A DNA stretch of 64,000 nt from a virus: IMG/VR virus record IMGVR_UViG_3300043429_000467. One strand, given 5' to 3'. Each line of letters begins with the position of its first letter. Positions within the stretch are counted from its first letter, which is position 1. A program made the translations under genes and the position numbers. The notes under the pieces were generated by a model, which was not told the DNA's origin, made no database searches, and worked only from the letters and a program-made list of their open reading frames with translations. Below are positions 43,692-61,263 of this stretch, piece after piece.

Positions 43692-44450
43692 TTATACAAT
43701 AACTATAGATACGCCATCACTGTTTGAGATAACTTCTTGTTTTTTATGCCAAGGAAAGTCGTCATTATAAACATTCTTCATGATTTTATTACCTTTTTCG
43801 AAGAAAGATTTCTGAACAGAACCCTCATTACCACCTAATCTATAGTTAACAGTATGTTGATTTGTACAAGTAAAGTTTGGAAAGTATTGTTTGATAGCAC
43901 CGAAGAATTTTCTATCGGCACCCCATTGACCATACCAAGCATGTCCTATTTGAATTGCTACATCTTTTCTTACAGCAAAACATGAAGTGTCTATATGATA
44001 AACATTCTCATCAAAGAACGTAGGCCATTTACCAAGTGATTCACAGTTATCTAAACAAACGAATTCACCATCTTCATCATATATGTTTCTAAGAGAAAAC
44101 ACCCATTGATTTGTAGAATTCTCTAGCGTGTCAACAATAGTTTGAACATGTGTTGGTTCAATCCAGTTATCTTCGTCAAGATATACAATCACATCAGCAT
44201 TTACTAAGAACGAACAAGCGGCATATACTCGATGACCATACCAACCTTTACCAACATTCTCTTCTAGAGCAATTAGTTTTGTTTTTGTATATTCATCTTT
44301 ATCAGTAACTTCTTGAATGCTATCAAAGTATTGCATACCATCAGCAAAGATATAATGAACAATATCAGTATATGTTTGATTGTTTACGCTCGCAACACAT
44401 TTTTCTAGATGTTTGCTACCAATAGAAGGAGTGACTACCGCTACTTTCAT
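43692..44450 (-). CDS. Family 2 glycosyltransferase (GT-A fold)
   Basis: VVTPSIGSKHLEKCVASVNNQTY...YLDEDNW (DxD motif). Confidence 0.6.
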   Translation of the reverse strand: MKVAVVTPSIGSKHLEKCVASVNNQTYTDIVHYIFADGMQYFDSIQEVTDKDEYTKTKLIALEENVGKGWYGHRVYAACSFLVNADVIVYLDEDNWIEPTHVQTIVDTLENSTNQWVFSLRNIYDEDGEFVCLDNCESLGKWPTFFDENVYHIDTSCFAVRKDVAIQIGHAWYGQWGADRKFFGAIKQYFPNFTCTNQHTVNYRLGGNEGSVQKSFFEKGNKIMKNVYNDDFPWHKKQEVISNSDGVSIVIV

Positions 44451-45211
44451 TCTTTTCTCTCAATATCACTTTCAACGCATTCTTCACCGTATTGAATTTC
44501 AATAATTCTACATGGTTCATCAAAAGGATTAATTAGTTGATGCCATTGTTCTTTTGCTACAAAATGAGAATCGTGTTTATCTAATCTCACTGTTGGTAAC
44601 TTATATTCACCACTAAGTTGCCCTGATACTAATGATTCACCTTCACTGACTAACCAATACTCTGAACGTTTATTATGCTTTTGCATCGATAATTTCTGAC
44701 CAGGATTAATAGTCAACTCTTTAACTTTAACGCCAGGTGCTTCATGAAGTACTCGATAGTAACCCCATGGCCTGATAGTTTTTGGTGCTTTCCATTCTTC
44801 AAGAATCCATGATGATGAATTCATCTTGTTATCACCACCGATACCAAACTTGAATATTAGATTATCATCTTTAACATCCATTTCAGGAATATTAGCTGAA
44901 GTTCTATCGCCACCATTTGCAAAGATGATTTGATTTGTTGGAAATAGTTTTCTGACTTGTGTAATAGCATCTTTTGCTGAACCATCAGAATCATCAAACT
45001 CAACAACACCCATGACATTTTTTAAACTAGAGACAATCTTTTTTCGCTCAGTATAAGGCATAAAAAAAGCACCCTTCTTGCGAATAAGCCATGCATCGGA
45101 GTTTACTCCAACCATAACTCTTCCCAATTCGGATGCTTCTTTAATATATTCAAGATGTCCGGAATGGATTGGGTCAAATCCACCCGTTACAATAACAATT
45201 GAATCACTCAT
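44447..45211 (-). CDS. Bifunctional sugar-nucleotide protein: N-terminal cytidylyltransferase-like nucleotidyltransferase plus C-terminal cupin
   Basis: IVTGGFDPIHSGHLEYI (HxGH motif of the CTP/ADP-heptose transferase superfamily). C-terminal PWGYYRVL...PGQKLSMQKHNKRSEYWLV is a cupin signature, as in type II mannose-6-phosphate isomerase. Overlaps the GT2 gene start. Confidence 0.55.
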   Translation of the reverse strand: MSDSIVIVTGGFDPIHSGHLEYIKEASELGRVMVGVNSDAWLIRKKGAFFMPYTERKKIVSSLKNVMGVVEFDDSDGSAKDAITQVRKLFPTNQIIFANGGDRTSANIPEMDVKDDNLIFKFGIGGDNKMNSSSWILEEWKAPKTIRPWGYYRVLHEAPGVKVKELTINPGQKLSMQKHNKRSEYWLVSEGESLVSGQLSGEYKLPTVRLDKHDSHFVAKEQWHQLINPFDEPCRIIEIQYGEECVESDIERKE

Positions 45212-45213: not shown

Positions 45214-45663
45214 TTAATCTTCCAAGTCACCGATATAAATCTCTGGAAATGCCTCGTGTACTAATTTAGGTGTTAAACCTTTAACTTTAATCTTCTTAGT
45301 CAGCAATTCAACTAATAGTTTAGCTTCATCTTTATGTAAAGACTCAAGTACTACTAATAACAATTCTGATTTCTTTTTGTCTGATAGATTTTCAGGACGT
45401 TTAGGATGACCTACAACGAATCGATATAATCTTTGCATCTCAGCATCTAGATATGTCATCGATAAACCAGGTGGGTCAAACGAAGGACGATAATCAGGAA
45501 TAATAACGTCGAATTGAATATTTGGATTAAATGCTCCACTTAAAAATTCAACGAATGGTTTGTTTGCGACTTTTTGTAAGTACGCAATTTTCTCCGCACG
45601 TGACGGAAGTGATTCAAACTTATCAAAAATTTCACTATATAATAACTCAGAACTCATTTGCAA
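45214..45663 (-). CDS. Hypothetical protein (149 aa)
   Basis: Overlaps the rnh stop; no recognisable motif. Confidence 0.3.
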   Translation of the reverse strand: MQMSSELLYSEIFDKFESLPSRAEKIAYLQKVANKPFVEFLSGAFNPNIQFDVIIPDYRPSFDPPGLSMTYLDAEMQRLYRFVVGHPKRPENLSDKKKSELLLVVLESLHKDEAKLLVELLTKKIKVKGLTPKLVHEAFPEIYIGDLED

Positions 45664-46495
45664 CCTCTATTAAGTTTTTAAGACGATTTGCAACTAAGTA
45701 ATTTATAAATTGCATTTTAGTCTTTGGTTTAGTATTCTCATAACTATGTATAACACTTGTTCGAATATCTTCAGGTATTTTACTTAAATCAATCAAACTT
45801 TCATTACGTCTGTAGTTTTTAAGTATCTCTTCATTCTCACAAAACACTTCAGGACTCTGATTCAACCAGACAGCAAGCTTTTCTTCGTAAATGGATTTCT
45901 GTCTAACTCCGTTTACATATGAATCATCGGCTGATAATATGTTTGGAATACCATCACCTTTATCACCACGAATAATTAATTCTTTAAGATGATTAAGTGG
46001 ATTACTATCTTTAATTTCTTTTTTCAGAATAGGTGAATATTGCTCAACATTCTTCATCGCTTGAAGTTGAACAAAGTCTTTATCCGAAGAAAGAATCATA
46101 ATCTTTTCATAGGGTGATTGTCTCACACATAAAGTAGCAATAATATCATCAGCTTCTACAGTATCAATTTCTAATACTTTATAATGAGAATACTTGATAA
46201 GTTCTTCTTTGATTACTTCTAAACACTTGAAAATTTCTTCCCAATTCAATCCAGAAGCCTGTCTAGTTTTCTTACGTGAAGCTTTGTAGTGTGGAAATAA
46301 AGTTTTGCGCCAATACTTTCTATTGTCACATGCAATAATAACCTCTGGTCCGTGAGTAGCTTTATACTTCTTAACATATGTTCTAAGTGTATTAAGTACT
46401 AAATGACGAGCCAAATCAATACTGATATCTTTATCACTTTCAGCTAACTCTTTTAAACTAGAGATAACTACTTGATTGAAATCAAATATAATCAT
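45647..46495 (-). CDS. rnh: RNase H / 5'-3' flap exonuclease, T4 rnh homolog
   Basis: IDTVEADDIIATL, ILSSDKDFVQLQ and IIRGDKGDGIPNI match T4 RNase H (IDKYEADDHIAVL, IISSDGDFTQL, ILKGDKKDNV). Confidence 0.85.
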   Translation of the reverse strand: MIIFDFNQVVISSLKELAESDKDISIDLARHLVLNTLRTYVKKYKATHGPEVIIACDNRKYWRKTLFPHYKASRKKTRQASGLNWEEIFKCLEVIKEELIKYSHYKVLEIDTVEADDIIATLCVRQSPYEKIMILSSDKDFVQLQAMKNVEQYSPILKKEIKDSNPLNHLKELIIRGDKGDGIPNILSADDSYVNGVRQKSIYEEKLAVWLNQSPEVFCENEEILKNYRRNESLIDLSKIPEDIRTSVIHSYENTKPKTKMQFINYLVANRLKNLIEVANEF

Positions 46496-46746
46496 TATTC
46501 TTCCAATACAGCTACAATAAATTCTTCTTTAACGAACCAGTATTTACCTGCTCGTGCTGATTTTGACCAATCAACAATCAATCTATCACCGACAGATACA
46601 TGTTCTACATCAGGTCCAATAGAGATAACTCGACCTTCAGTCTGAGCATCTTTATCCACTGAAGTCAACACGATACCGCTTGATGTTGTTGACTCTTTAG
46701 CAATTTGTTCTACTAATACGTTATTCTTTAATGGTCTAATATTCAT
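46495..46746 (-). CDS. groES: Co-chaperonin GroES (Cpn10) homolog
   Basis: 83 aa beginning MNIRPL, identical to E. coli GroES; conserved GIVL and mobile-loop region. This is a true GroES family member, not a gp31-type analog. Confidence 0.8.
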   Translation of the reverse strand: MNIRPLKNNVLVEQIAKESTTSSGIVLTSVDKDAQTEGRVISIGPDVEHVSVGDRLIVDWSKSARAGKYWFVKEEFIVAVLEE

Positions 46747-48119: not shown

Positions 48120-48201
48120 TTGATTTTTCTTAATTTATTCGTATTCGAGAAAATATTAACATAAATAAGTATATTAGTCAACTATAGATTGAGATATTAA
48201 T

Positions 48202-48480
48202 ATGGAACAATTCTTTAAATTAGTCGCAGACGTTGGATTTCCTATAGCGGCCGCATGTGGTGCTGGATACTTTGTATTCTTAACACTTAAGTTTATTCTT
48301 GAAGGTGTTACAGGTGGTGTTAAAAGTATGGCAGGAATTATTATTGCACTTGATAAACGAGTAGCAACTATGAACCACGACGTACTACGTATCGATACTA
48401 AAGTAAGTCATGCATTAGGTATTCCACCTGATTTAGATAGAATATCACGAGCAGAACAATCTGACGCTAGACGAGACTAA
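48202..48480 (+). CDS. Small membrane protein, paralog A (92 aa)
   Basis: N-terminal TM helix FPIAAACGAGYFVFL, shared with the adjacent paralog. Confidence 0.4.
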   Translation: MEQFFKLVADVGFPIAAACGAGYFVFLTLKFILEGVTGGVKSMAGIIIALDKRVATMNHDVLRIDTKVSHALGIPPDLDRISRAEQSDARRD

Positions 48481-48481
48481 T

Positions 48482-48739
48482 ATGGATATAGTAGAATTAA
48501 TTAATAAATACGGGTTCCCAATTGTTGCCGCTGGTGGTCTAGGTTACTTTGTTTACTACGTTTGGAAATGGGTAACTGAAGAAATTGAACCAGTTATTGG
48601 AGATTCTAAAAAAGTTTTGGTTGATTTGATTGACCGTATCAGAATGCTTGATAATGATTTAATCAGATTAACACAGAAAGTTAATACATTCTTAGCCATT
48701 GAAGATGCTAAGAAAAGGGATAGGAATAATAAGCAATAG
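48482..48739 (+). CDS. Small membrane protein, paralog B (85 aa)
   Basis: FPIVAAGGLGYFVYYVW TM helix, paralogous to 48202-48480. Confidence 0.4.
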   Translation: MDIVELINKYGFPIVAAGGLGYFVYYVWKWVTEEIEPVIGDSKKVLVDLIDRIRMLDNDLIRLTQKVNTFLAIEDAKKRDRNNKQ

Positions 48740-48871
48740 AATCTTATCAAGGGGTAACACCGAGATTCTACAAGTTGTCAAGTAGTTTGTCAAGAGAAAT
48801 TTAAAAATATTGTAAATAATTAGTAACATCATGGTTTAGTTGATTGATTTGAATTACGGAACTGAGCCAAA

Positions 48872-49312
48872 ATGAAAATATTAATATTTGCTATATGTCT
48901 ATTACTATGTGGTAGTGCATATGCTACCGAATTAGTGCACGAGTTTTTTTCACCAGCCTTTTCAGGTAATGGTTATTCAACTCATATATTAACCATTGAG
49001 CAAATTGAGTCTCAGCGTAAACAAAAAATTAAAGATGAACAGAAAGCGGCTGAGACTAAAGCTGAATTAGCCGCTAAACAAACAAATCTTGCTAAGTTTT
49101 TAGTGAATGTTGAGTCTAGAATATATGCTCAATTATCTAAGCAACTTGCAGATGAAATGTTTGCCGAAGGTGGTGCTGATTCCGGTGAAATGAATTTTCA
49201 AGGAACTAACATATCATGGTACAAAACAGGAAGTGATGTAACCTTAACTATTCTTGAAGATAACGGTAATAGAACCGAAGTTACTGTGCCGATAGCAGGA
49301 TTCTCATTTTAA
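48872..49312 (+). CDS. csgF: CsgF-like curli assembly protein (secreted)
   Basis: Signal peptide, then ELVHEFFSPAFSGNGYSTHILT, which parallels the E. coli CsgF N-terminus [22 protein letters not shown]. Stop overlaps the csgG start (TAATG). Confidence 0.55.
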   Translation: MKILIFAICLLLCGSAYATELVHEFFSPAFSGNGYSTHILTIEQIESQRKQKIKDEQKAAETKAELAAKQTNLAKFLVNVESRIYAQLSKQLADEMFAEGGADSGEMNFQGTNISWYKTGSDVTLTILEDNGNRTEVTVPIAGFSF

Positions 49313-50091
49313 TGATTCGTTTATTGATACTAATATTCGTTTTGTCAGGATGTGCTAACGTTCATATGAATGCGGCAAAAGAAGAACCTGTCAAGATAGA
49401 AGCTAGAAAAAAGATTGTTGATGCTTTACCTGAATTGGATGGACCACCGATTCCTATCGCAGTGTATTCGTTCGCAGATAAGACAGGTCAAAAGAAGTCA
49501 TCAGATAATCTGGCATTGTTTAGTACCGCAGTAACGCAAGGTGCAGAAGTGTTTCTAATCAAAGCGTTACAAGATAGTAAGAATTGGTTTAAAGTAGTAG
49601 AAAGGGTGGGACTTGATAATCTTATTAAAGAAAGACAGTTGATAAGAAATCAAAGAGAAGTATATGAAGGTAAAGAAGCAAAGCCATTAAAACCAATGAT
49701 GGTTGCTGGTGTAATGATAGAAGGAGGTATCATTGGATATGATACTAACATCAGGTCAGGTGGTAATGGTGCTAGATTATTAGGTATTGGTGTTTCACAG
49801 CAATATAGAGTAGATGAAATTGTAATCTCTATTAGATTGGTGAATGTCAATTCGGGTGAAGTAATGTTAACTAACGCAGTATCCAAAACGATTTACAGTA
49901 CTCAACATAACTTAGGTATCATGAAGTTTGTTGATTCAGGTACTAAGTCGATTGAGTTTGAAAATGGAGTTGCACTTAATGAACCTACTACATTCGCAGT
50001 AAGAGTTGCGATTGAACAAGCGGTTTATGAATTGATAATAGATGGAGAAAAGAAAGGTTATTGGAAATTTAAAAAGGAAAAACAGCAATGA
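49312..50091 (+). CDS. csgG: CsgG curli secretion channel lipoprotein
   Basis: Lipobox LSGC. IPIAVYSFADKTGQ...FSTAVTQGAEVFLIKALQDS...ERVGLDNLIKERQLIR...MIEGGIIGYDTNIRSGGNGARLLGIGVSQQYRVDEIVISIRLVNVNSGEV aligns along its length with E. coli CsgG (FVSVYNIQDETGQ...FSTAVPQSATAMLVTALKDS...ERQGLQNLLNERKIIR...MVEGSIIGYESNVKSGGVGARYFGIGADTQYQLDQIAVNLRVVNVSTGEI). Confidence 0.85.
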   Translation: MIRLLILIFVLSGCANVHMNAAKEEPVKIEARKKIVDALPELDGPPIPIAVYSFADKTGQKKSSDNLALFSTAVTQGAEVFLIKALQDSKNWFKVVERVGLDNLIKERQLIRNQREVYEGKEAKPLKPMMVAGVMIEGGIIGYDTNIRSGGNGARLLGIGVSQQYRVDEIVISIRLVNVNSGEVMLTNAVSKTIYSTQHNLGIMKFVDSGTKSIEFENGVALNEPTTFAVRVAIEQAVYELIIDGEKKGYWKFKKEKQQ

Positions 50092-50675
50092 AAAAAATAG
50101 CATTAATCTTTATGATGATAATGCTTAGTAATGTATATGCCGCAGAAATTTATATTGAACAGTCAGGAAGTAGTTCTACTGTCAATATAAATCAAGAAGG
50201 TATAGGTAATATTGTAGGTGATTCACTGAATCCGCTTTATATTGGCGGTGGTTCGAATAACGTTGATATCGACCAAATCGGTGATAATAACAACCTTCAA
50301 GGTGTTGTAAATGGTGCAGGAACAGCAACCACAGTAACAACTAATGGTTCAGGTAATATTCAAATTATTAATTGTGGTACAACAACATCAGCAGGATGTT
50401 CATCATCAGTAATCAAACAAGTAGTTACTGGAAGTGATAACACTATAACTCAAGATTTAGGTACTGGTGCTAATCATAACAGTGAGATTACGATTACTGG
50501 AAGTGATAACGCAGTGACTCATACTAGCACAAATGCTGGTGCAAGTACTGTAGATATTTCAGTGAGTGGTAATCAAAATACTGTGGGAGTAACACAAAGT
50601 GGACTTACAGCGAAAACTGTATCAGTTAGTTCTACTGGTAATAGCAATAATATTACTATCAACCAGTCAGAATAG
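50088..50675 (+). CDS. Curlin-repeat (CsgA/CsgB-like) secreted amyloid subunit
   Basis: Signal peptide plus at least six imperfect repeats of the S-x5-Q-x-G-x-x-N type (TVNINQEGIGN, NVDIDQIGDNN, NTITQDLGTGAN, NTVGVTQSG, NNITINQS). Start overlaps the csgG stop. Confidence 0.65.
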   Translation: MKKIALIFMMIMLSNVYAAEIYIEQSGSSSTVNINQEGIGNIVGDSLNPLYIGGGSNNVDIDQIGDNNNLQGVVNGAGTATTVTTNGSGNIQIINCGTTTSAGCSSSVIKQVVTGSDNTITQDLGTGANHNSEITITGSDNAVTHTSTNAGASTVDISVSGNQNTVGVTQSGLTAKTVSVSSTGNSNNITINQSE

Positions 50676-51696
50676 TTATTCAGCAATCGGTAAAGTTTCA
50701 GAACAAACAGGTCCTACCGAGATTGTCCGACAAAGCAAATCAATAGAGAGTAAATTAAACTCTTCTATTGAGATGCTTGACACTGTGGTAACCGCAAAGT
50801 CTAAAGTGTTACTAACGTTCGAAGATGATACAACAGTTAAGATTACTGAACAATCTAAATTAATTATCGATGATTTTGTTTATGATAATAAAAAAGGTGC
50901 TGGTAAATTAGCATTAAAAGTTGCTTTGGGTACGGCAAGATATGCTTCAGGACAGATAGCTAAGAGTAACCCACAATCAGTTAACATACAGACACCAACA
51001 GCAACAATTGCAGTTCGTGGTACTGATTTTAGTATGACTGTAGATGAATTAGGTAGAAGTTTGGTGATGCTTTTACCTTCTTGTGATAAGAAAGCGTGTG
51101 TAACAGGTGCTATTGAAGTGAGTACCGATGCAGGTTCTGTTTTTATGAATCAAGCATATCAAACAACTGTAGTTGCTACACGAGACCAAGCACCAACTAA
51201 GCCTGTGATTGTTAATATAGACCAGGCAAATATTAATAACTTGTTGATTGTTGCACCTCCAAAACAAGTAGAAGAACAAAAGATACAGCAAGATAATAAA
51301 ACTGTATTAGATTATAACTTTTTAGATAGAGATTTATTAGAGTATAACAAACTAGATGAAGATGAATTAAAAAGGTTTAGTTTACTTGATATGAATTTTT
51401 TATCTTTTGATTTGTTACCAAATATTTTGGATGAATCGAATAGGTCATTAGCGGCAAGTCAAGAAGCAATGCTAGAAGAAAAAACTTTGCTTCCTGGATA
51501 TAATGAAGCATCAGGATTGAAATATGGTATAGATGAAAATGGTAAGTTGATTTTAACAAAGATTGCTAATCATACTGCACAAGTGACAGTTGATAAAGAG
51601 CATGATGTGATTGTTAGTATTACGCAGGATAGTTCACCACTGATACAAAAAGTGAATGGTGGTGGAACAACAACAATTAACATTAATCAGAAATAG
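50599..51696 (+). CDS. Secreted FecR-domain-like protein (365 aa)
   Basis: Signal peptide MDLQRKLYQLVLLVIAIILLSTSQNSYSA. Central TPTATIAVRGTDFSMTVDE resembles FecR/DUF4974-type beta-sandwich domains. 5' end overlaps the curlin gene by 77 nt in another frame. Confidence 0.4.
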   Translation: MDLQRKLYQLVLLVIAIILLSTSQNSYSAIGKVSEQTGPTEIVRQSKSIESKLNSSIEMLDTVVTAKSKVLLTFEDDTTVKITEQSKLIIDDFVYDNKKGAGKLALKVALGTARYASGQIAKSNPQSVNIQTPTATIAVRGTDFSMTVDELGRSLVMLLPSCDKKACVTGAIEVSTDAGSVFMNQAYQTTVVATRDQAPTKPVIVNIDQANINNLLIVAPPKQVEEQKIQQDNKTVLDYNFLDRDLLEYNKLDEDELKRFSLLDMNFLSFDLLPNILDESNRSLAASQEAMLEEKTLLPGYNEASGLKYGIDENGKLILTKIANHTAQVTVDKEHDVIVSITQDSSPLIQKVNGGGTTTININQK

Positions 51697-51704
51697 GAGT
51701 AAAA

Positions 51705-53699
51705 ATGCTAAAGCAATCTTTATTAACAGTGGCATTAATCGGTGTGTTTGGTACAGTTCAATCAGCACCTTTAGTATTAGAAGGCGATTACATCAAAATT
51801 GGTGTAAACGAAGTAGGTACATTAGGTTCTAATGGTAATACATCACCTGGTGTTCTATATGATAACACCGGCACAGGAACATTCAACACAGCATATGACT
51901 ACTTAACTCCTGGTTCACCATTCGAAGGATGGACTGTTCAATATAATGGAACAGAATCAGTGATGAATAACAATGCTCAATGGTCATCACCACAAATGAC
52001 AGGTACACTAACAAGTTACAATGGTGTTGCTTACAATGGTACAACATTCGACAATCGAGCAGTTTGGGAAGGTACTTCAGTAAACTTTGATTTGTTACAT
52101 GATGTTCGCTTCAATGATAATCAAAAGTTTGTGGATATTACATCAATATTGACAGCTAAAGTTGCAATGACTGATTTATACTTCGCAAGATATACAGACC
52201 CTGACGCACGTGCGGCCGCTGGTGACAGTTCTGCTACAACAAACACATTAGGATTCTCACCTATTCCAGTAACTCAAGTTGTATTTTCTGAAGCTTTAGT
52301 ATCTAGATATGCACTTGGTTTATACTCAGCGGCACCTAACGTAGGCGCAGGTGTTAGTTCAGGTTGGTCAACAGACGCAACAACATATTACACCGGTGCA
52401 AATGATGGTAATGGTGACTATACGATAGGTTTAGGCTTCCACGTACCAACAGTAGCAATTGGTGACATCGTTACCTTTAATTATGCATACATCTTTGGAC
52501 CTAGCACATTATCTGCTGGTTCTACTGCTGTTACTTCAGGTGCTGGTGGTGGCGTTCCTGGTGAAGTTCCTGGTTGTGTGTCTGATTGTACATTACCACC
52601 TGACCCTAGTTCAACTCCTACATTAGTATCAACAGACGTTGAGTTATCTAGTGTATCTGTAGTTCATAGAGGTGATACTGATACTGCAATCGAATACGAC
52701 TATGCAACATCAAAAGGTTCTAAAGTATTAGCTGTAAATCAAACTACAACTACAACTTTAACAACTCCAGTAACAACTACAGTAGCTTCTACTTCAACTA
52801 CAGTTGAAACATATAGTGATTCATCAGTAGTTCGTACAGTTGGTGCAACTACAACGACATCAAGTACAGTTAATGACGTAACAGAATCAGAATATGATAC
52901 TGCATTCTCAACAAGAATTGACCAATTTGATAGATTGTCAGCATCAAATGAAATGTACAATAGACAGTTAAATAGTAATATCATGGATAGATTTGTAGCA
53001 GGTCAAACTGGTGCTTATTTAAACATCGATAGTCAAACTAGCAATACACAAGATACCTATAAACAAAAAGCAAATCGTTTTGGTGTTGGAGTAGACAAGT
53101 CTATTACTGATAATTTGAATGTAGGTTTTCAATACAATAACATTTCATCAAGATTATCTGGAACTAATGCAGGTGGACGTTTAGATAAAAATCATGTTGG
53201 TGCATATGCTGTATACACTAAAAACAATTGGGTGTTTGTAAACGATATTGGTTTCTCATATAACGATTACAAAACAAATCACAGTTTACCTGAATTGAAT
53301 GCAACAAATAGTTCAAGTGCTAATGGATATGACTTATGGGTTAGCGGTAGAGCATATACTCCATCACTAAAAGGATTCAGACCATATGCTGGTATTAGAA
53401 TTGAAAACAACAACTTAGATTCAGCTAAAGATAAAGGTACTGAATTGACTGCTGTTAGTTATAGTAAAATTAATTCAACAAATACAACAGGTGAATATGG
53501 TATCAGATACGATTATCAATACAAAAAAGTTAACTTGTTAGCTGAAGTTGGTTCTAATTCTGATAATATCAAACTATACAAAGCAGGTATTAACTTTATT
53601 CCAAATGAAAAAGTTATTGGTGGTGTATCATTTACGCAACAAGAATATGATAATATCAAGAATGATGTGATTTCAGCTAATATAAAAGTTAATTTCTAA
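51705..53699 (+). CDS. Autotransporter-like outer-membrane protein (passenger, Thr-rich linker, C-terminal beta-barrel)
   Basis: Signal peptide; Thr-rich linker TTTTLTTPVTTTVASTSTT; C-terminal alternating-hydrophobic strands ending ...ISANIKVNF (aromatic terminal residue typical of OMP barrels). Confidence 0.5.
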   Translation: MLKQSLLTVALIGVFGTVQSAPLVLEGDYIKIGVNEVGTLGSNGNTSPGVLYDNTGTGTFNTAYDYLTPGSPFEGWTVQYNGTESVMNNNAQWSSPQMTGTLTSYNGVAYNGTTFDNRAVWEGTSVNFDLLHDVRFNDNQKFVDITSILTAKVAMTDLYFARYTDPDARAAAGDSSATTNTLGFSPIPVTQVVFSEALVSRYALGLYSAAPNVGAGVSSGWSTDATTYYTGANDGNGDYTIGLGFHVPTVAIGDIVTFNYAYIFGPSTLSAGSTAVTSGAGGGVPGEVPGCVSDCTLPPDPSSTPTLVSTDVELSSVSVVHRGDTDTAIEYDYATSKGSKVLAVNQTTTTTLTTPVTTTVASTSTTVETYSDSSVVRTVGATTTTSSTVNDVTESEYDTAFSTRIDQFDRLSASNEMYNRQLNSNIMDRFVAGQTGAYLNIDSQTSNTQDTYKQKANRFGVGVDKSITDNLNVGFQYNNISSRLSGTNAGGRLDKNHVGAYAVYTKNNWVFVNDIGFSYNDYKTNHSLPELNATNSSSANGYDLWVSGRAYTPSLKGFRPYAGIRIENNNLDSAKDKGTELTAVSYSKINSTNTTGEYGIRYDYQYKKVNLLAEVGSNSDNIKLYKAGINFIPNEKVIGGVSFTQQEYDNIKNDVISANIKVNF

Positions 53700-53723
53700 T
53701 TTTTAACGACTAAATAAGTAATC

Positions 53724-55742
53724 ATGAAAAAATTACTTAATCCATGGTTAGCGTTAATAACGTTAACTTTATTAGTAGTAATCAGATTGGCAGACTTCAG
53801 TTTTATCGAGTCTGTCAGATTGCGATATTTTGACACATTAATTACAAGTGAATCTGTAAAGGTTTCTGAACAAATTCACGTTGTAAATATAGATGATAAG
53901 TCCATAGAAAAGTATGGACAATTTCCGTTTCCTAGAGGTGATTATGCGAGCATTATTGATTCTTTGTATGACCGTGGCGCTGGGCTGGTTGTTTTTAACT
54001 TGTTTCTACCTGATAGTGATAGGTTTGGACAAGATGGTAGACTTACTTCTACCCTTAACAAACACCCTGTAGTATTCCCACAAGCTGGTTCTACTGATAA
54101 ACAAAAAGCTATACCATTTAGACCTGGTGTTTCTGAGATTGGAACACCAGCTTCTAATTTTGCAGTATCTTATCCAAGTATTTTAACTAACATAAAACAA
54201 ATTAATGAAAATGCCGCTGGCATTGGAGTAGTGAATGTATTACCTGAAATTGATGGTGTTGTCCGTCGTGTACCTATGGTCGTCTCAAGCAATGGCGTAT
54301 TGTTTCCCTCAATCACACTTGAAACTTTGCGAGTTGCTTCCGGAGACCCAAGTTTCCAAGTCAAGTCAACAGATTACGGTATCGAGGCCGTCAGAATACC
54401 TAGCTTCAGAAAAGTTGAAACTGACTCTTTCGGACGAGTTTGGATTGACTGGTCCACTAAGCCTACCGAACACAGTCTTGTTGATTTACCCAAGTCCTTT
54501 GATGGGACAATCGTCATTGTTGGACTCAGTGCTAAAGGACTCAACAATCCTGTCGCAACAGCAAGAGGAGAGGTCTATCCGCATTATTTACAGGCAAGCG
54601 TTCTAGATACACTTGTATCAGGTAAAAATATTAGTAGACCTGACTGGTCAAATGGTGTAGAATTATTATTGACAGTTATTCTGTCTGTGATATCTATATT
54701 ATTAACTAGGTGGAAATATGGCTTTATTGCTTTTCTTGCTATCATTGCTGGTGTTGTGGGTGCTTCTAAAGGTGCTTTTGTTTACTATTCGTATCTTCTT
54801 GATTGTATTTTTCCTGTGTTTTGCTTGGGTATTGTTTATTTACATGTGTATACAGTTAAGTTCGTAAGCGAATTAAATCAAAAACTTCAAATCAAAAAAC
54901 AATTTGGCACATATCTGTCGCCAGCACTTGTTGAAAAACTTCAAAAGAATCCTGAATTATTAAGACTTGGTGGTGAGTCTCGTGAACTATCTATTATGTT
55001 CACCGATGTTAGAGGCTTCACTACAATCTCAGAACACTATGGTAAAGATGTTCAAGGATTAACTCAAATTATGAATCGCTACATGACAGCGATGACCGCA
55101 AAGATTATTGAGAACAACGGAACACTGGATAAATACATTGGTGATGCTCAGATGGCTTTCTGGAATGCACCACTTGATGAGCCTAACCACGCTAAATTGG
55201 CATTGAAAACGGCTCTAGAAATGATGGAGAGTTTAGATGCGTTTAATAAAGAGATTCAAAAAGAGGGTATTCCGGCGTTTGGTATGGGACTCGGGATTAA
55301 TACTGGCACTGTTGTCGTTGGTAATATGGGTTCTAGCCAACGCTTTGATTACACCTGCTTAGGTGATGCTGTTAACTTAGCGTCACGTTTAGAAGGACAA
55401 TCGAAACCTTATGGTGTTAAAATCATATTAGGTTCGTTAACTGCTGAACAAGTTAAAGATGAATATCCAGTTGTTGAGTTAGATTGTATTGCTGTTAAAG
55501 GTAAAACAGAAGGTGTTAAGATTTATACTCCTTGTGTTTATCAAGAAGAGCATTATAAGTTACACAAAAAATATCTAAAATCATACTATGATGGTATTTG
55601 GGATTCAGCAATTTTCTTTGCTAAAGATTTAGAGATTAATGGTCCTACAGAATTACGTCAATATTATCATAACATGATAGAGAGAATGCTTGAAGGTAAA
55701 CCTGAAGATTGGGATGGTACGTATAGAGCAACTAGCAAGTAA
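53724..55742 (+). CDS. CHASE2 sensor-domain class III adenylate/guanylate cyclase (membrane-bound)
   Basis: N-terminal TM, periplasmic CHASE2-like region, 3-4 TM helices, then a cyclase homology domain (FTDVRGFTTISE...KYIGDAQMAFWNAP...GINTGTVVVGNMGS...YTCLGDAVNLASRLE) with both metal-binding Asp residues. Confidence 0.8.
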   Translation: MKKLLNPWLALITLTLLVVIRLADFSFIESVRLRYFDTLITSESVKVSEQIHVVNIDDKSIEKYGQFPFPRGDYASIIDSLYDRGAGLVVFNLFLPDSDRFGQDGRLTSTLNKHPVVFPQAGSTDKQKAIPFRPGVSEIGTPASNFAVSYPSILTNIKQINENAAGIGVVNVLPEIDGVVRRVPMVVSSNGVLFPSITLETLRVASGDPSFQVKSTDYGIEAVRIPSFRKVETDSFGRVWIDWSTKPTEHSLVDLPKSFDGTIVIVGLSAKGLNNPVATARGEVYPHYLQASVLDTLVSGKNISRPDWSNGVELLLTVILSVISILLTRWKYGFIAFLAIIAGVVGASKGAFVYYSYLLDCIFPVFCLGIVYLHVYTVKFVSELNQKLQIKKQFGTYLSPALVEKLQKNPELLRLGGESRELSIMFTDVRGFTTISEHYGKDVQGLTQIMNRYMTAMTAKIIENNGTLDKYIGDAQMAFWNAPLDEPNHAKLALKTALEMMESLDAFNKEIQKEGIPAFGMGLGINTGTVVVGNMGSSQRFDYTCLGDAVNLASRLEGQSKPYGVKIILGSLTAEQVKDEYPVVELDCIAVKGKTEGVKIYTPCVYQEEHYKLHKKYLKSYYDGIWDSAIFFAKDLEINGPTELRQYYHNMIERMLEGKPEDWDGTYRATSK

Positions 55743-55790
55743 TTTGCATATCACGCAAATTTAAATATGATTTTTTGCGTCAAGTGCAAA

Positions 55791-56042
55791 TTACTTGTCA
55801 TATCTTGAGTTATATATATTATGGTGGTCATCATAATTTTTTCTATATTCAAACTCTTTATCAGTCAAACAAAATTTACCTTGTTTTATTTCAGATAGAT
55901 ATTTTTTTAATCTTTTTTGTCTGTCATCAATTATAAATTTAGCCATACCTTGTTCTTGAAACATATTTATTTGATTAATTGAATTTTTAATATCAAATAG
56001 TATTTCTTCTTTATATCGAAGAGGTTTCTTTCTATATTCCAT
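55791..56042 (-). CDS. Small hypothetical protein (83 aa)
   Basis: Intact ORF. Confidence 0.25.
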   Translation of the reverse strand: MEYRKKPLRYKEEILFDIKNSINQINMFQEQGMAKFIIDDRQKRLKKYLSEIKQGKFCLTDKEFEYRKNYDDHHNIYNSRYDK

Positions 56043-56056: not shown

Positions 56057-56251
56057 CTATAAAAACTCGTATTTAAAACACTTGACACATAATGCACCAA
56101 ATGCAGGACCACTTATAGCACTGATAGTCTCTTTACAATTAGAACAATGAATGAAAGCTTGAGTATATATCATACCAGATTTAGGTTCAAGTATTTCTGT
56201 ACCGTCAGTATAATATCCTATTACTTTATCTTTTTCAGTATTGACAGACAT
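56057..56251 (-). CDS. Small Cys-containing hypothetical protein (64 aa)
   Basis: CSNC...C..C pattern. Confidence 0.25.
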   Translation of the reverse strand: MSVNTEKDKVIGYYTDGTEILEPKSGMIYTQAFIHCSNCKETISAISGPAFGALCVKCFKYEFL

Positions 56252-56274
56252 ATTAATCTTTCAATTGGTGGGCC

Positions 56275-56352
56275 CCGTGGGATTCGAACCCACTGTCTAT
56301 CGGTTATGAGCCGATTGCTTATACCAGATTTAAGCTTGAGGCCCGAATATGG
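56275..56352 (-). tRNA. tRNA-Met or Ile2 (anticodon CAU)
   Basis: Hand-folded cloverleaf: CCA encoded; T-arm GTGGG/attcgaa/CCCAC on the plus strand; anticodon loop ctCATaa. Confidence 0.6.
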
Positions 56353-56358
56353 AGCGTC

Positions 56359-56433
56359 CTGCGGGAATCGAACCCGCCTCTTCAGCTTGGAAGGCTGTAA
56401 TAATACCACTATACCAAGAACGCATAACGGATG
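56359..56433 (-). tRNA. tRNA-Gly (UCC)
   Basis: Cloverleaf with T-arm GCGGG/aatcgaa/CCCGC; anticodon loop ctTCCaa. Confidence 0.6.
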
Positions 56434-56700
56434 AAAAAGCAAGTAAAAGACGGGACAATGTACATTAGAAGGGCTATGCCACTAAACTCTAAGACAATCA
56501 ACAAACCACAATAATCAAAACCTGCATATTAGTTAGAAACAAAACACAAAGTCGTCGTTTATAATACTAACACACGCAGAACGATTTCAGGTCGTTTTGG
56601 ATTTGGCGTCCATACTGGAGAGAAATTAATCTCATCTTAGTCAATTCTCATCTCTTTTTCATGCCGAGTAGATTTTTTGAAGAAAACCTACCAGAAAAAC

Positions 56701-57267
56701 TTAAAGAATACCTGCTTTAGTTAGTGTTTCCACTACGTTATCAGGTAACTCAATCTCAGTCTTAATATTCAATTCAAGAATCTTATCTTGAATTTTTTGC
56801 TTCTCTTTTTTGAATGTAGAAACATTCTTTTTAGCAATAGAAATATTACCTTCAGTACATACGGTAGTAGTTACTTCATCGGCTCTACCATATACACTTC
56901 TAGTAGTATCTGTATTGTTTTTAATCTTATCAAGCTTACCTTCGACAATATTAATAGCTGTCGCTGGTGCTGAAGTTGCTATGTTTTGATGTAGATGAAT
57001 AGTCTTTTCAATCAATGCAACATCACTTAACAAATCATTAATTTGATTTGCGTTTGCTTTACCAACTAGTTTTCTAATCGTATACAAACTAACATACAAA
57101 TCATTATTTACCTCAAAAGCTGTTAAATAATCTTTGTTTGCTTTATCAAACTTTTCAGATACATTTTCAAACTCATTGAATGTAACCATATTGTTTAGCT
57201 GATTATTCTTAATAGTATCAAGAATAGTTTGTTGTAATGCATTTGCTTTTCTAAGCGTAATTTTCAT
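56701..57267 (-). CDS. Hypothetical protein (188 aa) inside the tRNA region
   Basis: Intact ORF; predicted helical/coiled. Confidence 0.3.
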   Translation of the reverse strand: MKITLRKANALQQTILDTIKNNQLNNMVTFNEFENVSEKFDKANKDYLTAFEVNNDLYVSLYTIRKLVGKANANQINDLLSDVALIEKTIHLHQNIATSAPATAINIVEGKLDKIKNNTDTTRSVYGRADEVTTTVCTEGNISIAKKNVSTFKKEKQKIQDKILELNIKTEIELPDNVVETLTKAGIL

Positions 57268-57275
57268 AATAACTC

Positions 57276-57461
57276 CTAATGTGCTAAAATCTTAAAGCAC
57301 TTAAATTTAATAACTTTTGTTGTACCTGAAGCCATCTTCTTAGCTTCTTCACCTGCGGCAACACATTCTTGTTGTGAAAAGAAACCTGGTACATTAGTTA
57401 ATGCCATCGAATCAGTATCACTCATCATACCTGCATGTGCAAACAATAATAAAACCCACAT
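57276..57461 (-). CDS. Small secreted hypothetical protein (61 aa)
   Basis: Signal-peptide-like N-terminus. Confidence 0.25.
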   Translation of the reverse strand: MWVLLLFAHAGMMSDTDSMALTNVPGFFSQQECVAAGEEAKKMASGTTKVIKFKCFKILAH

Positions 57462-57483
57462 AATAAATCTCCAATAATAAGAA

Positions 57484-57559
57484 TGGTGTCCCCGGAGAGA
57501 ATCGAACTCCCGTATAATGCTTTAGAAGAGCACTGCGTCATCCACTACGCTACGAGGAC
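57484..57559 (-). tRNA. tRNA-Arg (UCU)
   Basis: Cloverleaf folded by hand; anticodon loop ctTCTaa. Confidence 0.55.
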
Positions 57560-57594
57560 ATTTGAAAGCATATTACTATACTTTACTTTAAATG

Positions 57595-58155
57595 TCAAAT
57601 ATATCTACTATGTTTAGGTAGTTTAGACTTTAAGTATTCCATTTGGTCAGCAACTACGTTTCTATTCTGTAGAATAAAGTGTTCCCATCTACAAGGTCTG
57701 TAAGGTAAAAACAACAATAACATATTAGCTTCTTCAGGTGTTCTATCTGCTTTCTTAGAGTTACAGTGCTTACATGAAGACACTGAGTTTTCCCAAGCAT
57801 TAGAACCACCACGACTTCTTGGATGTACGTGGTCTCTAGTCAAATCTTTTGATTCAAAGAATAGTCCACAGTAAGCACATAAGTTATGGTCTCGTCTGAA
57901 TAACAAAAAGTTACCGTGAGCATTCACAGTTTCTTTAGTATGCAATCTTCGAGTTTCACCTCTTACTGAGATGATAGACTTGATACTGATTTGAGATTGT
58001 AAACCATTCTTTTGATAGCCGCCATGAAACACTTGAAACTCAGTACCTAAGTCCCAAACAACTTTATCTGAGGCGTAGTAATGCACCGCTTCTTCGGGCA
58101 TCAGCCACTTGAAGGGATTACCTGCAATATCTAGTCCTAGTATACGTGCTTCCAT
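57595..58155 (-). CDS. HNH homing-type endonuclease
   Basis: CAYCGLFF...DHVHPRSRGGSNAWENSVSSCKHCNSKK (HNH motif with flanking Cys pairs). Inserted between tRNA genes. Confidence 0.75.
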   Translation of the reverse strand: MEARILGLDIAGNPFKWLMPEEAVHYYASDKVVWDLGTEFQVFHGGYQKNGLQSQISIKSIISVRGETRRLHTKETVNAHGNFLLFRRDHNLCAYCGLFFESKDLTRDHVHPRSRGGSNAWENSVSSCKHCNSKKADRTPEEANMLLLFLPYRPCRWEHFILQNRNVVADQMEYLKSKLPKHSRYI

Positions 58156-58204
58156 GATAGTCTCAAAAAAATAATTTAGATGTTATATGTATATATCTTT
58201 AAAA

Positions 58205-58281
58205 TTGGTGCGGAAGGAGGGAGTCGAACCCTCAAAACTCGGATTTTAAGTCCGATACGTATGCCAATTCCGTCACATCCG
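58205..58281 (-). tRNA. tRNA with anticodon UAA (Leu-type anticodon) but short 5-nt variable region
   Basis: Clean T-arm GAGGG/agtcgaa/CCCTC, 5-bp anticodon stem TCGGA/TCCGA, loop ctTAAaa. Total 77 nt, class I architecture. Confidence 0.5.
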
Positions 58282-58361
58282 CTTATTAAATTTAGAACGT
58301 TGCTGTTTCTGAACCCTAGTAGTAACAATAAAGTTAAAAAATTACAGCAACGCTCTAAAAC

Positions 58362-58438
58362 TGGTAGAAGTAGTGAGATTCGAACTCACGATAGGTTGCG
58401 TATGAAGCAACTGCATTAAGCCACTATGCTACACTTCT
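58362..58438 (-). tRNA. tRNA-Met or Ile2 (CAU), second copy
   Basis: T-arm GTGAG/attcgaa/CTCAC; anticodon stem GTTGC/GCAAC; loop ttCATac. Confidence 0.6.
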
Positions 58439-58650
58439 GTTAAAACTTTTTGCTTCATAAATTGGCAGTATGCTTTATAATCTTCATGCATTGCCTTTTG
58501 TATTAACTCATCAGTGCTTTTATAAAAAATATGTCCAACTAGTTTTAATCTAATAGACTCATATAAACAGTCCATCTTCAATTCTTCAGATGGAGGATAT
58601 TCTTTATAAAACTCTTCATAAGTTAACATAATAATCCTTTGGGGTGTCAT
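58429..58650 (-). CDS. Small hypothetical protein (73 aa)
   Basis: Intact ORF between tRNAs. Confidence 0.25.
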   Translation of the reverse strand: MTPQRIIMLTYEEFYKEYPPSEELKMDCLYESIRLKLVGHIFYKSTDELIQKAMHEDYKAYCQFMKQKVLTEV

Positions 58651-58718
58651 ACGAGATTTGAACTCGTGCTATAACATTCACAGTGTTAGGTGCTAACCAC
58701 TACACTAATGACACCATT
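58640..58718 (-). tRNA. tRNA-His (GUG)
   Basis: Anticodon loop ctGTGaa; discriminator C and extra 5' G(-1), consistent with His identity. Confidence 0.65.
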
Positions 58719-58721
58719 AAA

Positions 58722-58795
58722 TGGCTCCGGTGGAGGGAGTCGAACCCCCGCCAAGAGGTTTGGAGTCTCTTGTGCTACCGTAACACTTCACCGGA
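58722..58795 (-). tRNA. tRNA-Trp (CCA)
   Basis: Anticodon loop ctCCAaa; acceptor stem perfectly complementary. Confidence 0.55.
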
Positions 58796-58802
58796 ATAAA
58801 AC

Positions 58803-58879
58803 TGGAGGATAGAGTGAGATTCGAACTCACGAACCACTGCTTTGCAGGCAGGTACCTTAGACCACTCGGTCATCTATCC
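58803..58879 (-). tRNA. tRNA-Cys (GCA)
   Basis: T-arm GTGAG/attcgaa/CTCAC; anticodon loop ctGCAaa. Confidence 0.55.
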
Positions 58880-59101
58880 TTAACAACAACCTGCATCTGG
58901 AAAAATAAATACTTTTTCTTCAGCAGAATCATCAGTATTATATTCAATAAATGTGTTAATTTCTTCTTGTGCAAATGTAACACCTTCATTCTCTGCTAAA
59001 AACGTAGCATCAGCTAGATTATCAGCAACTACAACTAACCCGCCATCTGAATGGTAATTGTCAGTTAGATTAGCAATCCTTGTCCAAATAAAAACTTTCA
59101 T
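58880..59101 (-). CDS. Small hypothetical protein (73 aa)
   Basis: Intact ORF. Confidence 0.25.
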   Translation of the reverse strand: MKVFIWTRIANLTDNYHSDGGLVVVADNLADATFLAENEGVTFAQEEINTFIEYNTDDSAEEKVFIFPDAGCC

Positions 59102-59104
59102 AAT

Positions 59105-59521
59105 CTACTCCAATGGAAATAATTCTTTAAATTTTGCAGTCATTACATCAATTAAAACTGGATGACGATAATCGTAGTCATCTTCAATTTCTAAATTAAT
59201 TACTTGTTTAAAATCAAAATCAAATGTCCAATTATCCATATCATTAAACATTTTGTTTTGCATTGTATTGATATGTAATTGTTGAATACTATCCATCACT
59301 AGAATAACATCAGCCCAAATAATCAAAGCTTCAGTCACAGGAATAATCGCATATTCTGCACTAGTTCCTGCACATCTAGTATTGAAGTTCCATGGTTCTG
59401 AACTAAGAATATGTGCCGCTGTAGGACTTCTTAGACATCCTGCTGAACATACAGTCAATACTTTCTTATGCTTTCCTTGATAAGCATTGAATATCACCCC
59501 AAGTTGGTTTCTTTTTAGCAT
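59105..59521 (-). CDS. Low-molecular-weight phosphotyrosine phosphatase / ArsC-family fold protein (tentative)
   Basis: VLTVCSAGCLRSPTAAHIL resembles the P-loop CX5R(S/T) signature of the LMW-PTP family. Confidence 0.4.
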   Translation of the reverse strand: MLKRNQLGVIFNAYQGKHKKVLTVCSAGCLRSPTAAHILSSEPWNFNTRCAGTSAEYAIIPVTEALIIWADVILVMDSIQQLHINTMQNKMFNDMDNWTFDFDFKQVINLEIEDDYDYRHPVLIDVMTAKFKELFPLE

Positions 59522-60243: not shown

Positions 60244-60307
60244 ACAATCACCTAATCATAATATAAAATAATCATACATCAAAATTAATTTAATGTAAAG
60301 CATTATT

Positions 60308-60383: not shown

Positions 60384-60385
60384 AT

Positions 60386-60461: not shown

Positions 60462-60462
60462 A

Positions 60463-60963: not shown

Positions 60964-60975
60964 AATCTTCCTTTA

Positions 60976-61051: not shown

Positions 61052-61057
61052 GTAAAA

Positions 61058-61258: not shown

Positions 61259-61263
61259 AAAAC

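Follow-up and report, generated by a model that had tools for sequence, protein, structure and literature searches.

A phage-borne type VIII secretion/curli module with an autotransporter in its variable slot, in a T4-like lineage distant from the described carriers

Introduction

The curli-related genes of phages are known as the viral type VIII secretion system (T8SS) module. They were described as the 'curli operon' of pelagimyophages (Zaragoza-Solas et al., 2020; PMC7029224), then in phage Melnitz, for which a pinholin/secretin role in lysis timing was proposed (Buchholz et al., 2022; PMC9004378), and in both myo- and podophages as a set comprising 'HK', CsgF, CsgG, CsgA/B, FecR, a second CsgA/B and an adenylate cyclase (Wittmers et al., 2022; PMC9599517). 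According to the last study, transcripts of the module are present in ocean metatranscriptomes, the module accounts for some 0.1% of the viral proteins assembled from ocean viromes, and trees favour an alphaproteobacterial origin. The hosts of the cultured phages concerned do not carry the module genes (Zaragoza-Solas et al., 2020; Buchholz et al., 2022). Here we analyse a 64,000-nucleotide stretch of viral DNA (IMG/VR record IMGVR_UViG_3300043429_000467, the whole of which is called the window below), in which a block of eight genes at positions 48202-55742 is a variant of the viral T8SS/curli module, with an autotransporter gene in the variable slot and in a phage lineage distant from the described ones.

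A curli-type module of eight genes

The block is made of eight consecutive open reading frames (ORFs) on the plus strand, with lengths given in amino acids (aa):

48202-48480, plus strand: p1, membrane protein, 92 aa, phrog_18771
48482-48739, plus strand: p2, paralogue of p1, 85 aa, phrog_18771
48872-49312, plus strand: CsgF homologue, 146 aa, Pfam CsgF and signal peptide
49312-50091, plus strand: CsgG homologue, 259 aa, Pfam CsgG and lipobox
50088-50675, plus strand: curlin-repeat protein, 195 aa, Pfam Curlin_rpt and signal peptide
50599-51696, plus strand: secreted FecR-domain protein, 365 aa, GTG start, Pfam FecR
51705-53699, plus strand: type Va autotransporter-like protein, 664 aa, from predicted structure and homologues
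53724-55742, plus strand: predicted CHASE2 class III adenylate cyclase, 672 aa, Pfam CHASE2 and Guanylate_cyc

This layout agrees with a preliminary description of the window, made from its letters alone, which had placed eight plus-strand genes at these positions between minus-strand rnh and groES genes and a minus-strand tRNA array; the ORFs and both flanks were located. That nearly all products are directed to the envelope, as it also stated, holds for all eight, each of which has a signal peptide, a lipobox or hydrophobic segments. Signal-peptide-like N-termini are present in CsgF, the curlin protein, the FecR protein and the 664-aa protein, and Sec export is predicted for five of the block products. 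The individual identifications made at that stage were recovered as well: the two small transmembrane (TM) proteins are indeed paralogous (32% identity, E 2e-14), the CsgF/CsgG/curlin set and the secreted FecR-domain protein have the corresponding Pfam matches, the latter with a signal peptide when read from its GTG start, the CHASE2 cyclase matches Pfam CHASE2 (3.9e-37) and Guanylate_cyc (1.5e-20), and the autotransporter-like protein with a Thr-rich linker is borne out by an AlphaFold model, Foldseek matches, PF03797 matches recorded for its homologues and a linker containing 27% Thr.

As in the viral T8SS modules, csgF and csgG are adjacent in a phage genome, a curlin-repeat gene and then a FecR-domain gene lie downstream of csgG, and an adenylate cyclase gene comes last. 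A tblastn search with CsgG found Pelagibacter phage HTVC008M and Methylophilales phage Melnitz, whose annotations begin with two small hypothetical genes, followed by CsgF and CsgG, then by a curlin-associated protein and one annotated as FecR-domain or hypothetical, and last by a protein annotated as curlin-repeat or hypothetical and an adenylate/guanylate cyclase. In the same order, and at 26-54% identity, both phages have counterparts of seven of the eight window proteins:

p1: Melnitz 54%, HTVC008M 45%
p2: Melnitz 49%, HTVC008M 43%
CsgF: Melnitz 47%, HTVC008M 46%
CsgG: Melnitz 47%, HTVC008M 45%
Curlin protein: Melnitz 26%, HTVC008M 28%
FecR protein: Melnitz 40%, HTVC008M 38%
Cyclase: Melnitz 38%, HTVC008M 38%

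The block therefore has the same genes in the same order as the modules described in Pelagibacter and OM43 phages (HTVC008M, Melnitz and the HTVC023P-type podophages; Zaragoza-Solas et al., 2020; Buchholz et al., 2022; Wittmers et al., 2022) and, like them, lacks CsgC, CsgD and CsgE and lies in a part of a T4-like genome that is variable. Searching IMG/VR with CsgG added 59 loci at 52-90% CsgG identity. Each sufficiently complete locus has six or seven of the eight genes, and those that are present always follow the order csgF-csgG-curlin-fecR-(zero to several variable genes)-cyclase, the sole exception being an autotransporter gene that follows csgF in some of them. The same gene order is found in L079, and in L004 with the autotransporter inserted after csgF. 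Since L079 is a close relative that also shares the flanks of the window, misassembly, which the preliminary description had named as a possible objection, is unlikely.

The block nonetheless differs from the described modules. Its slot between fecR and the cyclase gene holds the 664-aa autotransporter, where the described modules frequently have a second curlin-repeat gene; it adjoins a 24-tRNA array and the rnh/groES genes, whereas the cassette of HTVC008M and Melnitz lies between gp32 and baseplate hub genes; small genes of this kind were called 'histidine kinase' (Wittmers et al., 2022), and no kinase domain was detected in those of the block; and its carrier is distant. Elsewhere in the window are genes for an RNA ligase and for the wedge, hub and tube-cap proteins of a T4-type baseplate. 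For the gp6-like protein, the best matches, in Methylophilales phage Melnitz and the Pelagibacter phages Mosig and HTVC008M, reach only 40-44% identity. Searched by megablast against 50,697 phage records, the 7.5-kb block gave zero matches, and the kinship of the block to known phages is visible in sequence comparisons at the protein level only. Because of the T4-type genes, the low gp6 identity and the absence of a nucleotide-level match, the carrier is classed among the T4-like myophages, as a distant relative of the pelagimyophages.

Variable cargo is seen elsewhere too. The cassette is also present in L078, a 338-kb JGI contig that encodes HSP70, HSP20, ClpS and ribosomal protein S21, and there about nine extra genes, including those for a metallophosphatase, a GT4 glycosyltransferase, a fatty-acid desaturase, AhpC and TauD, separate the autotransporter and cyclase genes. 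The interval between fecR and the cyclase gene is evidently a favoured site for cargo.

The secretion channel and its substrate

The CsgF homologue matches Pfam CsgF across the full profile (2.6e-17) and has the FFSPAFSGNGYS N-terminal motif after the predicted signal-peptide cleavage site; a PDB sequence search with this protein returned nothing useful. The CsgG homologue (Pfam CsgG 3.7e-52; lipobox LSGC) aligns over its full length with Escherichia coli CsgG structures (E 4.6e-47) and retains the constriction-loop Phe. That CsgG and CsgF have the features needed for a curli-type outer-membrane channel is thus supported by their sequences. In one large sub-lineage (L008-L033), CsgG reaches 368-415 aa compared with about 260 aa (e.g., L031, 9959-11203), with a C-terminal extension of about 110-155 aa. 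The curlin protein scores 25.7 bits against Pfam Curlin_rpt (1.1e-5; cut-off 20.7 bits) and 8.4e-5 against NCBIfam CsgA, and contains about ten strands of the x-V-x-I-x-Q type, the last of which ends in NNITINQSE; it is the presumed fibre-forming substrate of the channel.

Full-length CsgG, full-profile CsgF and a curlin-repeat subunit are what the block shares with the curli system of E. coli and Salmonella (csgBAC, csgDEFG). The CsgE adaptor, CsgC chaperone, CsgD regulator and separate CsgB nucleator of that system are all missing from the block, in which the set is joined by the two small membrane proteins, the autotransporter, the FecR protein and the CHASE2 cyclase.

The FecR protein and the CHASE2 cyclase

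The FecR protein matches Pfam FecR at 1.3e-10 and phrog_37870 at 5.5e-93. Its gene very probably starts at the GTG at 50599, which has GGGAG nine bases upstream and implies a 77-nt overlap with the curlin gene; this start is preferred because it is the only one that yields the signal peptide found in full-length homologues. An alignment of 11 phage FecR homologues reveals signal peptides and, as invariant residues, two Cys and a C-terminal Gln. An alignment of phage FecR proteins was also used to scan one genome per bacterial and archaeal species, which returned six low-GC contigs of metagenome-assembled genomes (MAGs), two Henriciella loci and five remote loci.

A further property of these proteins concerns their C-termini (51670-51696 in the window), nearly all of which, in the window and in L001-L064, form a curlin-like strand x-I-x-I-x-Q. 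Examples are TTTININQK (window), STTITITQK and NAITINQTN, which resemble the end of the curlin protein given above; the Henriciella homologue ends similarly in SVFILE, and the remote bacterial FecR proteins are without the motif. Such a strand may dock the FecR protein onto curlin or onto the CsgG machinery.

In the cyclase, one hydrophobic segment precedes CHASE2 and three follow it, before the cyclase domain. The best alignments of this domain are to a CyaB1 fusion (8e-33), Spirulina CyaC (1wc1; 2e-27) and Pseudomonas aeruginosa CyaB (3r5g; 4e-27), and the motifs FTDvrGFT, DKyiGDaqMA and DYTclGDaVNlASRLE are conserved with respect to CyaC and CyaB. In class III cyclases, motifs of this kind provide two metal-binding Asp, a Lys/Thr pair that specifies the purine (class IIIb), and the transition-state Asn and Arg. 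The protein is predicted to be an active adenylate cyclase whose product is cyclic AMP (cAMP). A role in defence or anti-defence, suggested by a generic similarity to Pycsar cyclases in PADLOC, was rejected on account of the CHASE2 receptor architecture and the Lys/Thr adenine pair.

A CHASE2 gene also adjoins the FecR gene in four of the five remote bacterial loci, with different outputs: these are HD-GYP-like in two Acidobacteria loci, a cyclase was confirmed in the alphaproteobacterial L076, and in L077 the pairing was seen by BLAST only. In Sinorhizobium meliloti, the gene smc02177 presumably lies beside the CHASE2 cyclase gene cyaD1. Its product has a FecR domain, and mutation of smc02177 left signal perception intact, so that a partner role of FecR is not established even in bacteria (PMC5498481). 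In the same species the outer-membrane beta-barrel protein NsrA is required upstream of the CHASE2 cyclases CyaK and CyaD1/D2 (PMC7529298). A Burkholderia operon involved in biofilm consists of a response regulator, a LysM/FecR protein and a CHASE2 histidine kinase, and P. aeruginosa likewise has a LysM/FecR gene adjoining a CHASE2 histidine kinase gene (PMC5192318). Judging from these gene neighbourhoods, the FecR domain travels with the CHASE2 sensor in bacteria regardless of the output domain. In the window, as in these pairs, a secreted FecR-domain protein is encoded beside an inner-membrane CHASE2 receptor, and the output of CyaD1, CyaD2 and CyaK is cAMP, as predicted for the window cyclase; the window differs in that the pair is joined to a curli secretion set and borne by a phage. 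Because FecR genes accompany CHASE2 genes in bacteria whatever the output, we infer by analogy that the phage FecR protein is the periplasmic partner of the CHASE2 cyclase.

The autotransporter

The 664-aa protein has no counterpart in HTVC008M or Melnitz and no similarity to their second curlin proteins. It matches no Pfam family at E <=0.01, PF03797 included, and a PDB sequence search with it gave nothing useful; it has more than 1500 metagenome homologues, many with a recorded PF03797 match. Its assignment to type Va autotransporters thus rests on predicted structure and on homologues, PF03797 being unmatched by the window protein itself. The protein has a signal peptide, and its AlphaFold model (mean pLDDT 83.9) comprises a beta-rich domain (residues 23-280), long beta-hairpins (307-404, the Thr-rich region), a helix (407-421) and twelve strands with a terminal Phe. 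The barrel matches NalP (1e-11), EstA, BrkA and EspP in Foldseek, and the 12-strand barrel and linker helix (E 1e-11 to 1e-8, target TM score 0.6-0.8), as well as the signal peptide and terminal Phe, are shared with these type Va proteins.

The passenger is different: it is neither a beta-helix nor an esterase, but a beta-supersandwich (galactose-mutarotase-like fold) carried on the Thr-rich beta-hairpin stalk. Modelled alone (pLDDT 90.8), it is similar in fold to non-catalytic domains found in GH94, GH116, GH38 and GH15 enzymes and to the P1 domain of YidC (TM score 0.5-0.6); among viral proteins, its best match is an FN3-annotated one of 1422 aa from an uncultured phage (E 5e-12, TM score 0.69). 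Going by this resemblance of fold only, the displayed passenger domain may bind carbohydrate. In L003, L004/L005, L078, L079 and 16 IMG/VR loci, the autotransporter gene is always inside the cassette, after csgF or after fecR. It is not mentioned in the three papers on the module (Zaragoza-Solas et al., 2020; Buchholz et al., 2022; Wittmers et al., 2022), and a wider literature search found no paper tying an autotransporter to the module. The autotransporter is therefore a recurrent accessory of the cassette that is new with respect to these three papers.

The two small membrane proteins

In p1, a single hydrophobic segment spans residues 11-29; that of p2, also N-terminal, is read from the alignment with p1, its own hydropathy peak being below threshold. 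Both match phrog_18771 (p1, 4.9e-35; p2, 6.3e-33) and, weakly, the holin family phrog_4898 (p1, 5e-3; p2, 2.6e-4), and no Pfam or NCBIfam family. Their build, one N-terminal TM segment and a charged C-terminus, is holin-like. No kinase domain (HisKA, HATPase_c) or other Pfam family was found in p1, p2 or 14 homologues, and proteins of 85-92 aa have no room for a kinase core; our results lend no support to the 'histidine kinase' label.

Among the 50,697 phage records, p1 was found solely in the six that carry CsgG, and phage Mosig has neither gene. In metagenomic loci, p1/p2 homologues either precede the cassette on its own strand or follow it at a distance of a few kb in the opposite orientation, with a p2 homologue within about 10 kb of the cassette wherever the flanks are long enough. 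The bacterial version of the core is without them. The sequences thus point to phage-specific additions, possibly holin-like. In two phage sub-lineages (L038, 5938-8646; L046, 7614-9513), a GH19 endolysin-like gene directly precedes three genes of the p1/p2 family and then csgF, an arrangement that is lysis-cassette-like. In the window, no endolysin-like gene was found near the block.

Signals for expression

A T4-type late-promoter-like motif, CATAAATA, lies on the plus strand at 48160-48167, 35 nt upstream of p1; its earlier placement at 48166-48173 was wrong by six bases. Sites of the form [CT]ATAAATA number 14 in the window, and six of the 14 are located at most 35 nt upstream of an ORF on the same strand, baseplate genes among them; the phage therefore appears to use T4-type late promoters. 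The same motif is kept upstream of the p1 homologue in L006, L003, L021/L023 and L034/L036, and is replaced by AATAAATA in L064. A second element of this kind, TGTAAATA, is present at 48811-48818 (plus strand) in the 132-nt spacer between p2 and csgF. Relatives have TATAAATA/CATAAATA or [GCT]TAAATACTA upstream of csgF, and a TAAATA-type element precedes this gene in the window and in many relatives. Whole-window counts of TATAAATA and CATAAATA are at or below chance, only their position with respect to gene starts being informative.

A scan for sigma-70 promoters found 48 sites, not above the 41 ± 7.6 expected from shuffled sequences. An Rfam scan of 47.8-56.3 kb, with E up to 1, gave chance-level matches only, and the p2-csgF spacer folds no better than its shuffles (z = -1.07); there is therefore no sign of a riboswitch. 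At the end of p2, a hairpin with a 9-bp stem (48737-48770; AGAAUCU...AGAUUCU) lies over and just past the stop codon, without a T tract, which fits p1-p2 being a separate transcript or having a processed end. At the other end of the block, a long inverted repeat (55735-55798) covers the stop codon of the cyclase gene together with the gap separating this gene from the convergent one, and is a candidate bidirectional terminator; it has a minimum free energy of -26.3 kcal/mol (z = -7.24) and none of 200 shuffles folds as well. From these patterns we infer late transcription as two units, p1-p2 and csgF-to-cyclase, ending at the terminator-like hairpin.

Other short elements were noted in the same regions. 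Two copies of a direct repeat, TTGTCAAG, lie in the p2-csgF spacer at 48775-48782 and 48787-48794, and an (A/T)GTCAA box is located at 48176-48181, about 9-10 nt downstream of the late-promoter-like motif of p1, and kept in L006, L003, L021/L023 and L034/L036. The box could be a regulatory site.

Bacterial counterparts and origin of the module

On a 396-kb chromosomal contig of a Henriciella sp. MAG (L071, GC 0.53), the genes csgF-csgG-curlin-fecR-CHASE2 cyclase are contiguous and in phage order at 6466-12489, flanked by genes for a TonB-dependent receptor, an FAA hydrolase, an oxidase and an oxygenase. The five proteins of the Henriciella cluster (L071/L072) are 30-48% identical to those of the window; the cluster differs in being without p1/p2 and the autotransporter and in the length of its curlin protein, 504 aa versus 195 aa in the window. 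By these sequence relationships, the module ultimately has cellular relatives. The six low-GC MAG contigs (L065-L070, GC 0.32-0.39), labelled Flavobacteriaceae, Luteolibacter, Rhodobacteraceae, Legionellales, Pirellulales and Bacteroidetes, are another matter: four carry the full phage cassette and five p1/p2 (L070 is too short). They look like phage contigs mis-binned into bacterial genomes, and were left out of the bacterial counts.

In neighbour-joining trees of the cyclase and FecR proteins, phages and Henriciella group together with 100% bootstrap, apart from the other bacterial pairs. The trees do not decide whether Henriciella is sister to the phage clade or nested in it (supports 19-47% and 1-34%), and the direction of transfer is therefore not settled by them. 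The window cyclase is 42% identical to that of Henriciella, versus 38-39% to those of HTVC008M and Melnitz.

The preliminary description had taken the block for horizontally acquired host envelope/biofilm machinery rather than phage core. The envelope gene content is right and cellular relatives do exist, as the five-gene core of Henriciella attests; the closest homologues of every gene are nevertheless in related phages, in conserved order, and the composition is uniform. The comparison of GC and codon use that had been proposed as a check gives a third-position GC (GC3) of 0.221 for the block and 0.232 for the rest of the window, and the GC of each block gene is less than 2 standard deviations (SD) from that of the other genes. 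Second-position GC (GC2) alone is raised, at 0.39 versus 0.34 elsewhere, because the secreted proteins are rich in Gly, Thr, Ser and Ala. The rise in GC reported near 54.2-54.5 kb is real (0.44 versus about 0.34 over 54.2-54.65 kb), but it is small, lies inside the CHASE2 coding region and has a parallel at 52.1-52.7 kb. Codon-use z values range from -0.5 to -2 in six genes and are +0.4 for the autotransporter and -3.65 for the cyclase gene, whose synonymous codon use is the most atypical of the block, with ordinary GC3.

Recent capture of envelope/biofilm genes from the current host, as a moron, is accordingly highly improbable and already largely refuted. It would suit the orientation of the block, on the strand opposite to its flanks and with a promoter-like motif and terminal hairpin of its own, as well as the existence of cellular homologues and the somewhat atypical codon use of the cyclase gene. 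It is opposed by the uniform GC3 and per-gene GC, by the best homologues of all eight genes being phage genes in the same order, by the low identity of the nearest bacterial version and by the lack of these genes in the hosts of cultured relatives (Zaragoza-Solas et al., 2020; Buchholz et al., 2022). A moron would be absent from related phages, and the module is present in HTVC008M, Melnitz, the 59 IMG/VR loci and L003/L004/L078/L079; as to the promoter and terminator of its own that a moron would have, the late-promoter-like motif and the strong hairpin are patterns in the DNA only. Uniform composition and homologues in related phages, which the preliminary description had itself named as evidence against its view, are essentially what was observed. 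The block is a long-resident, conserved accessory module of the phage lineage, already described in the literature.

Flanking genes

The block is bordered by the following features:

45647-46495, minus strand: rnh-like exonuclease gene (phrog_107), left flank
46495-46746, minus strand: groES-like gene, 83 aa, left flank, whose L079 counterpart matches Pfam Cpn10
55791-56042 and 56057-56251, minus strand: two small ORFs separating the block from the first tRNA gene
56266-62452, minus strand: array of 24 tRNA genes, right flank

The tRNA array covers 19 amino-acid specificities, with small ORFs interspersed and an HNH endonuclease gene (57595-58155; Pfam HNH_5 3e-15), and is unusually large compared with the sets of cultured pelagimyophages. 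Just left of rnh/groES, at 43692-45211, Pfam matches identify a GT2 glycosyltransferase gene and a cytidylyltransferase/mannose-6-phosphate-isomerase-type fusion gene, which are more envelope-glycan-modifying cargo near the cassette.

Possible functions of the module

On balance, it seems somewhat probable that the whole block is a late-expressed T8SS/curli accessory module with two arms, one making a surface structure and the other signalling from the envelope to the cytoplasm through cAMP. In the surface arm, the CsgG/CsgF channel would export a curlin fibre and the autotransporter would display its carbohydrate-binding-like beta-supersandwich on the Thr-rich stalk; in the signalling arm, the FecR protein would act on the inner-membrane CHASE2 cyclase, which would produce cAMP. 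Transcription would be late and in two units, as the promoter-like motifs suggest. The least certain steps are those that follow: late in infection the host surface would be coated with adhesive fibres and a lectin-like adhesin, this coat would lead to aggregation ('sibling capture') or shield the cell from other phages, and the cAMP arm would report the state of the envelope or of secretion. Aggregation, exclusion of other phages and lysis timing are all candidates for the physiological pay-off. Several observations weigh against this explanation. Two of the three E. coli CsgG constriction residues are changed (Y51 to Ser and N55 to Leu), and the curlin match is weak (25.7 bits). CsgE, CsgC and CsgD are absent from the eight block proteins in Pfam and NCBIfam searches, which leaves the targeting of the substrate unexplained. 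With an approximate E. coli CRP query, a crude phmmer search detected no cAMP receptor, either in the window or in the fetched loci, which are partial genomes. Short motifs such as those of the promoters are common in AT-rich DNA, TATAAATA occurring in the window at chance rate. Finally, Melnitz-infected cells did not clump under the culture conditions used (Buchholz et al., 2022).

The lack of clumping is also a point for a lysis-timing device, extended from the proposal of Buchholz et al. (2022), in which CsgG/CsgF would form a gated outer-membrane pore in place of a fibre exporter, p1/p2 a holin/antiholin-like pair, and the CHASE2 cyclase would sense the time of opening, the cassette thereby tuning when progeny are released. 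The holin-like build of p1 and p2 and their weak holin matches fit this device, as do the late-type promoter motifs and the GH19 endolysin-like gene directly before p1'-p1-(x)-p2-csgF in two sub-lineages. However, holins act at the inner membrane and an outer-membrane pore of about 1 nm does not release virions (Zaragoza-Solas et al., 2020); the conserved curlin-repeat substrate and full-length CsgF would be superfluous for a simple pore; Pelagibacter phage Mosig must lyse its host without p1/p2; and in the window, the holin matches are far from significant for family membership and no endolysin gene is near the block. We consider such a lysis-timing device unlikely. A channel for uptake, in which an ungated CsgG/CsgF pore would admit nutrients or cofactors and FecR would take part in sensing iron or another ligand (Zaragoza-Solas et al., 2020; Wittmers et al., 2022), is more doubtful still: the absence of CsgE from the block and the name of FecR, which comes from ferric-citrate signalling, speak for it, but the FecR domain belongs here to a secreted protein that lacks the anti-sigma and TM parts known from E. 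coli FecR, its bacterial neighbour is a CHASE2 sensor rather than a TonB receptor/sigma pair, and the curlin protein, CsgF and the autotransporter are left unaccounted for. There is a similarly slim chance that the module is an outside-in sensory device, in which fibres and autotransporter would sense neighbours, particles or superinfecting phages, the FecR protein, with its curlin-like C-terminal strand, would relay this from the CsgG/curlin machinery to CHASE2, and cAMP would set the activity of the holin-like p1/p2.

Concluding remarks

With the two-armed accessory module as the favoured explanation, the window documents the module in a T4-like lineage that is rich in tRNA genes and lies outside the described pelagimyophages. 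The FecR-CHASE2 pairing, the bacterial five-gene core and the unsupported 'histidine kinase' label narrow the hypotheses on its role to testable ones. Were the sensory-device reading true, a lysis-inhibition-like decision circuit, built from a curli machine, would exist in abundant aquatic phages. More generally, if the module alters surface stickiness or lysis timing in abundant bacterioplankton, it would bear on aggregation, carbon export and phage competition.

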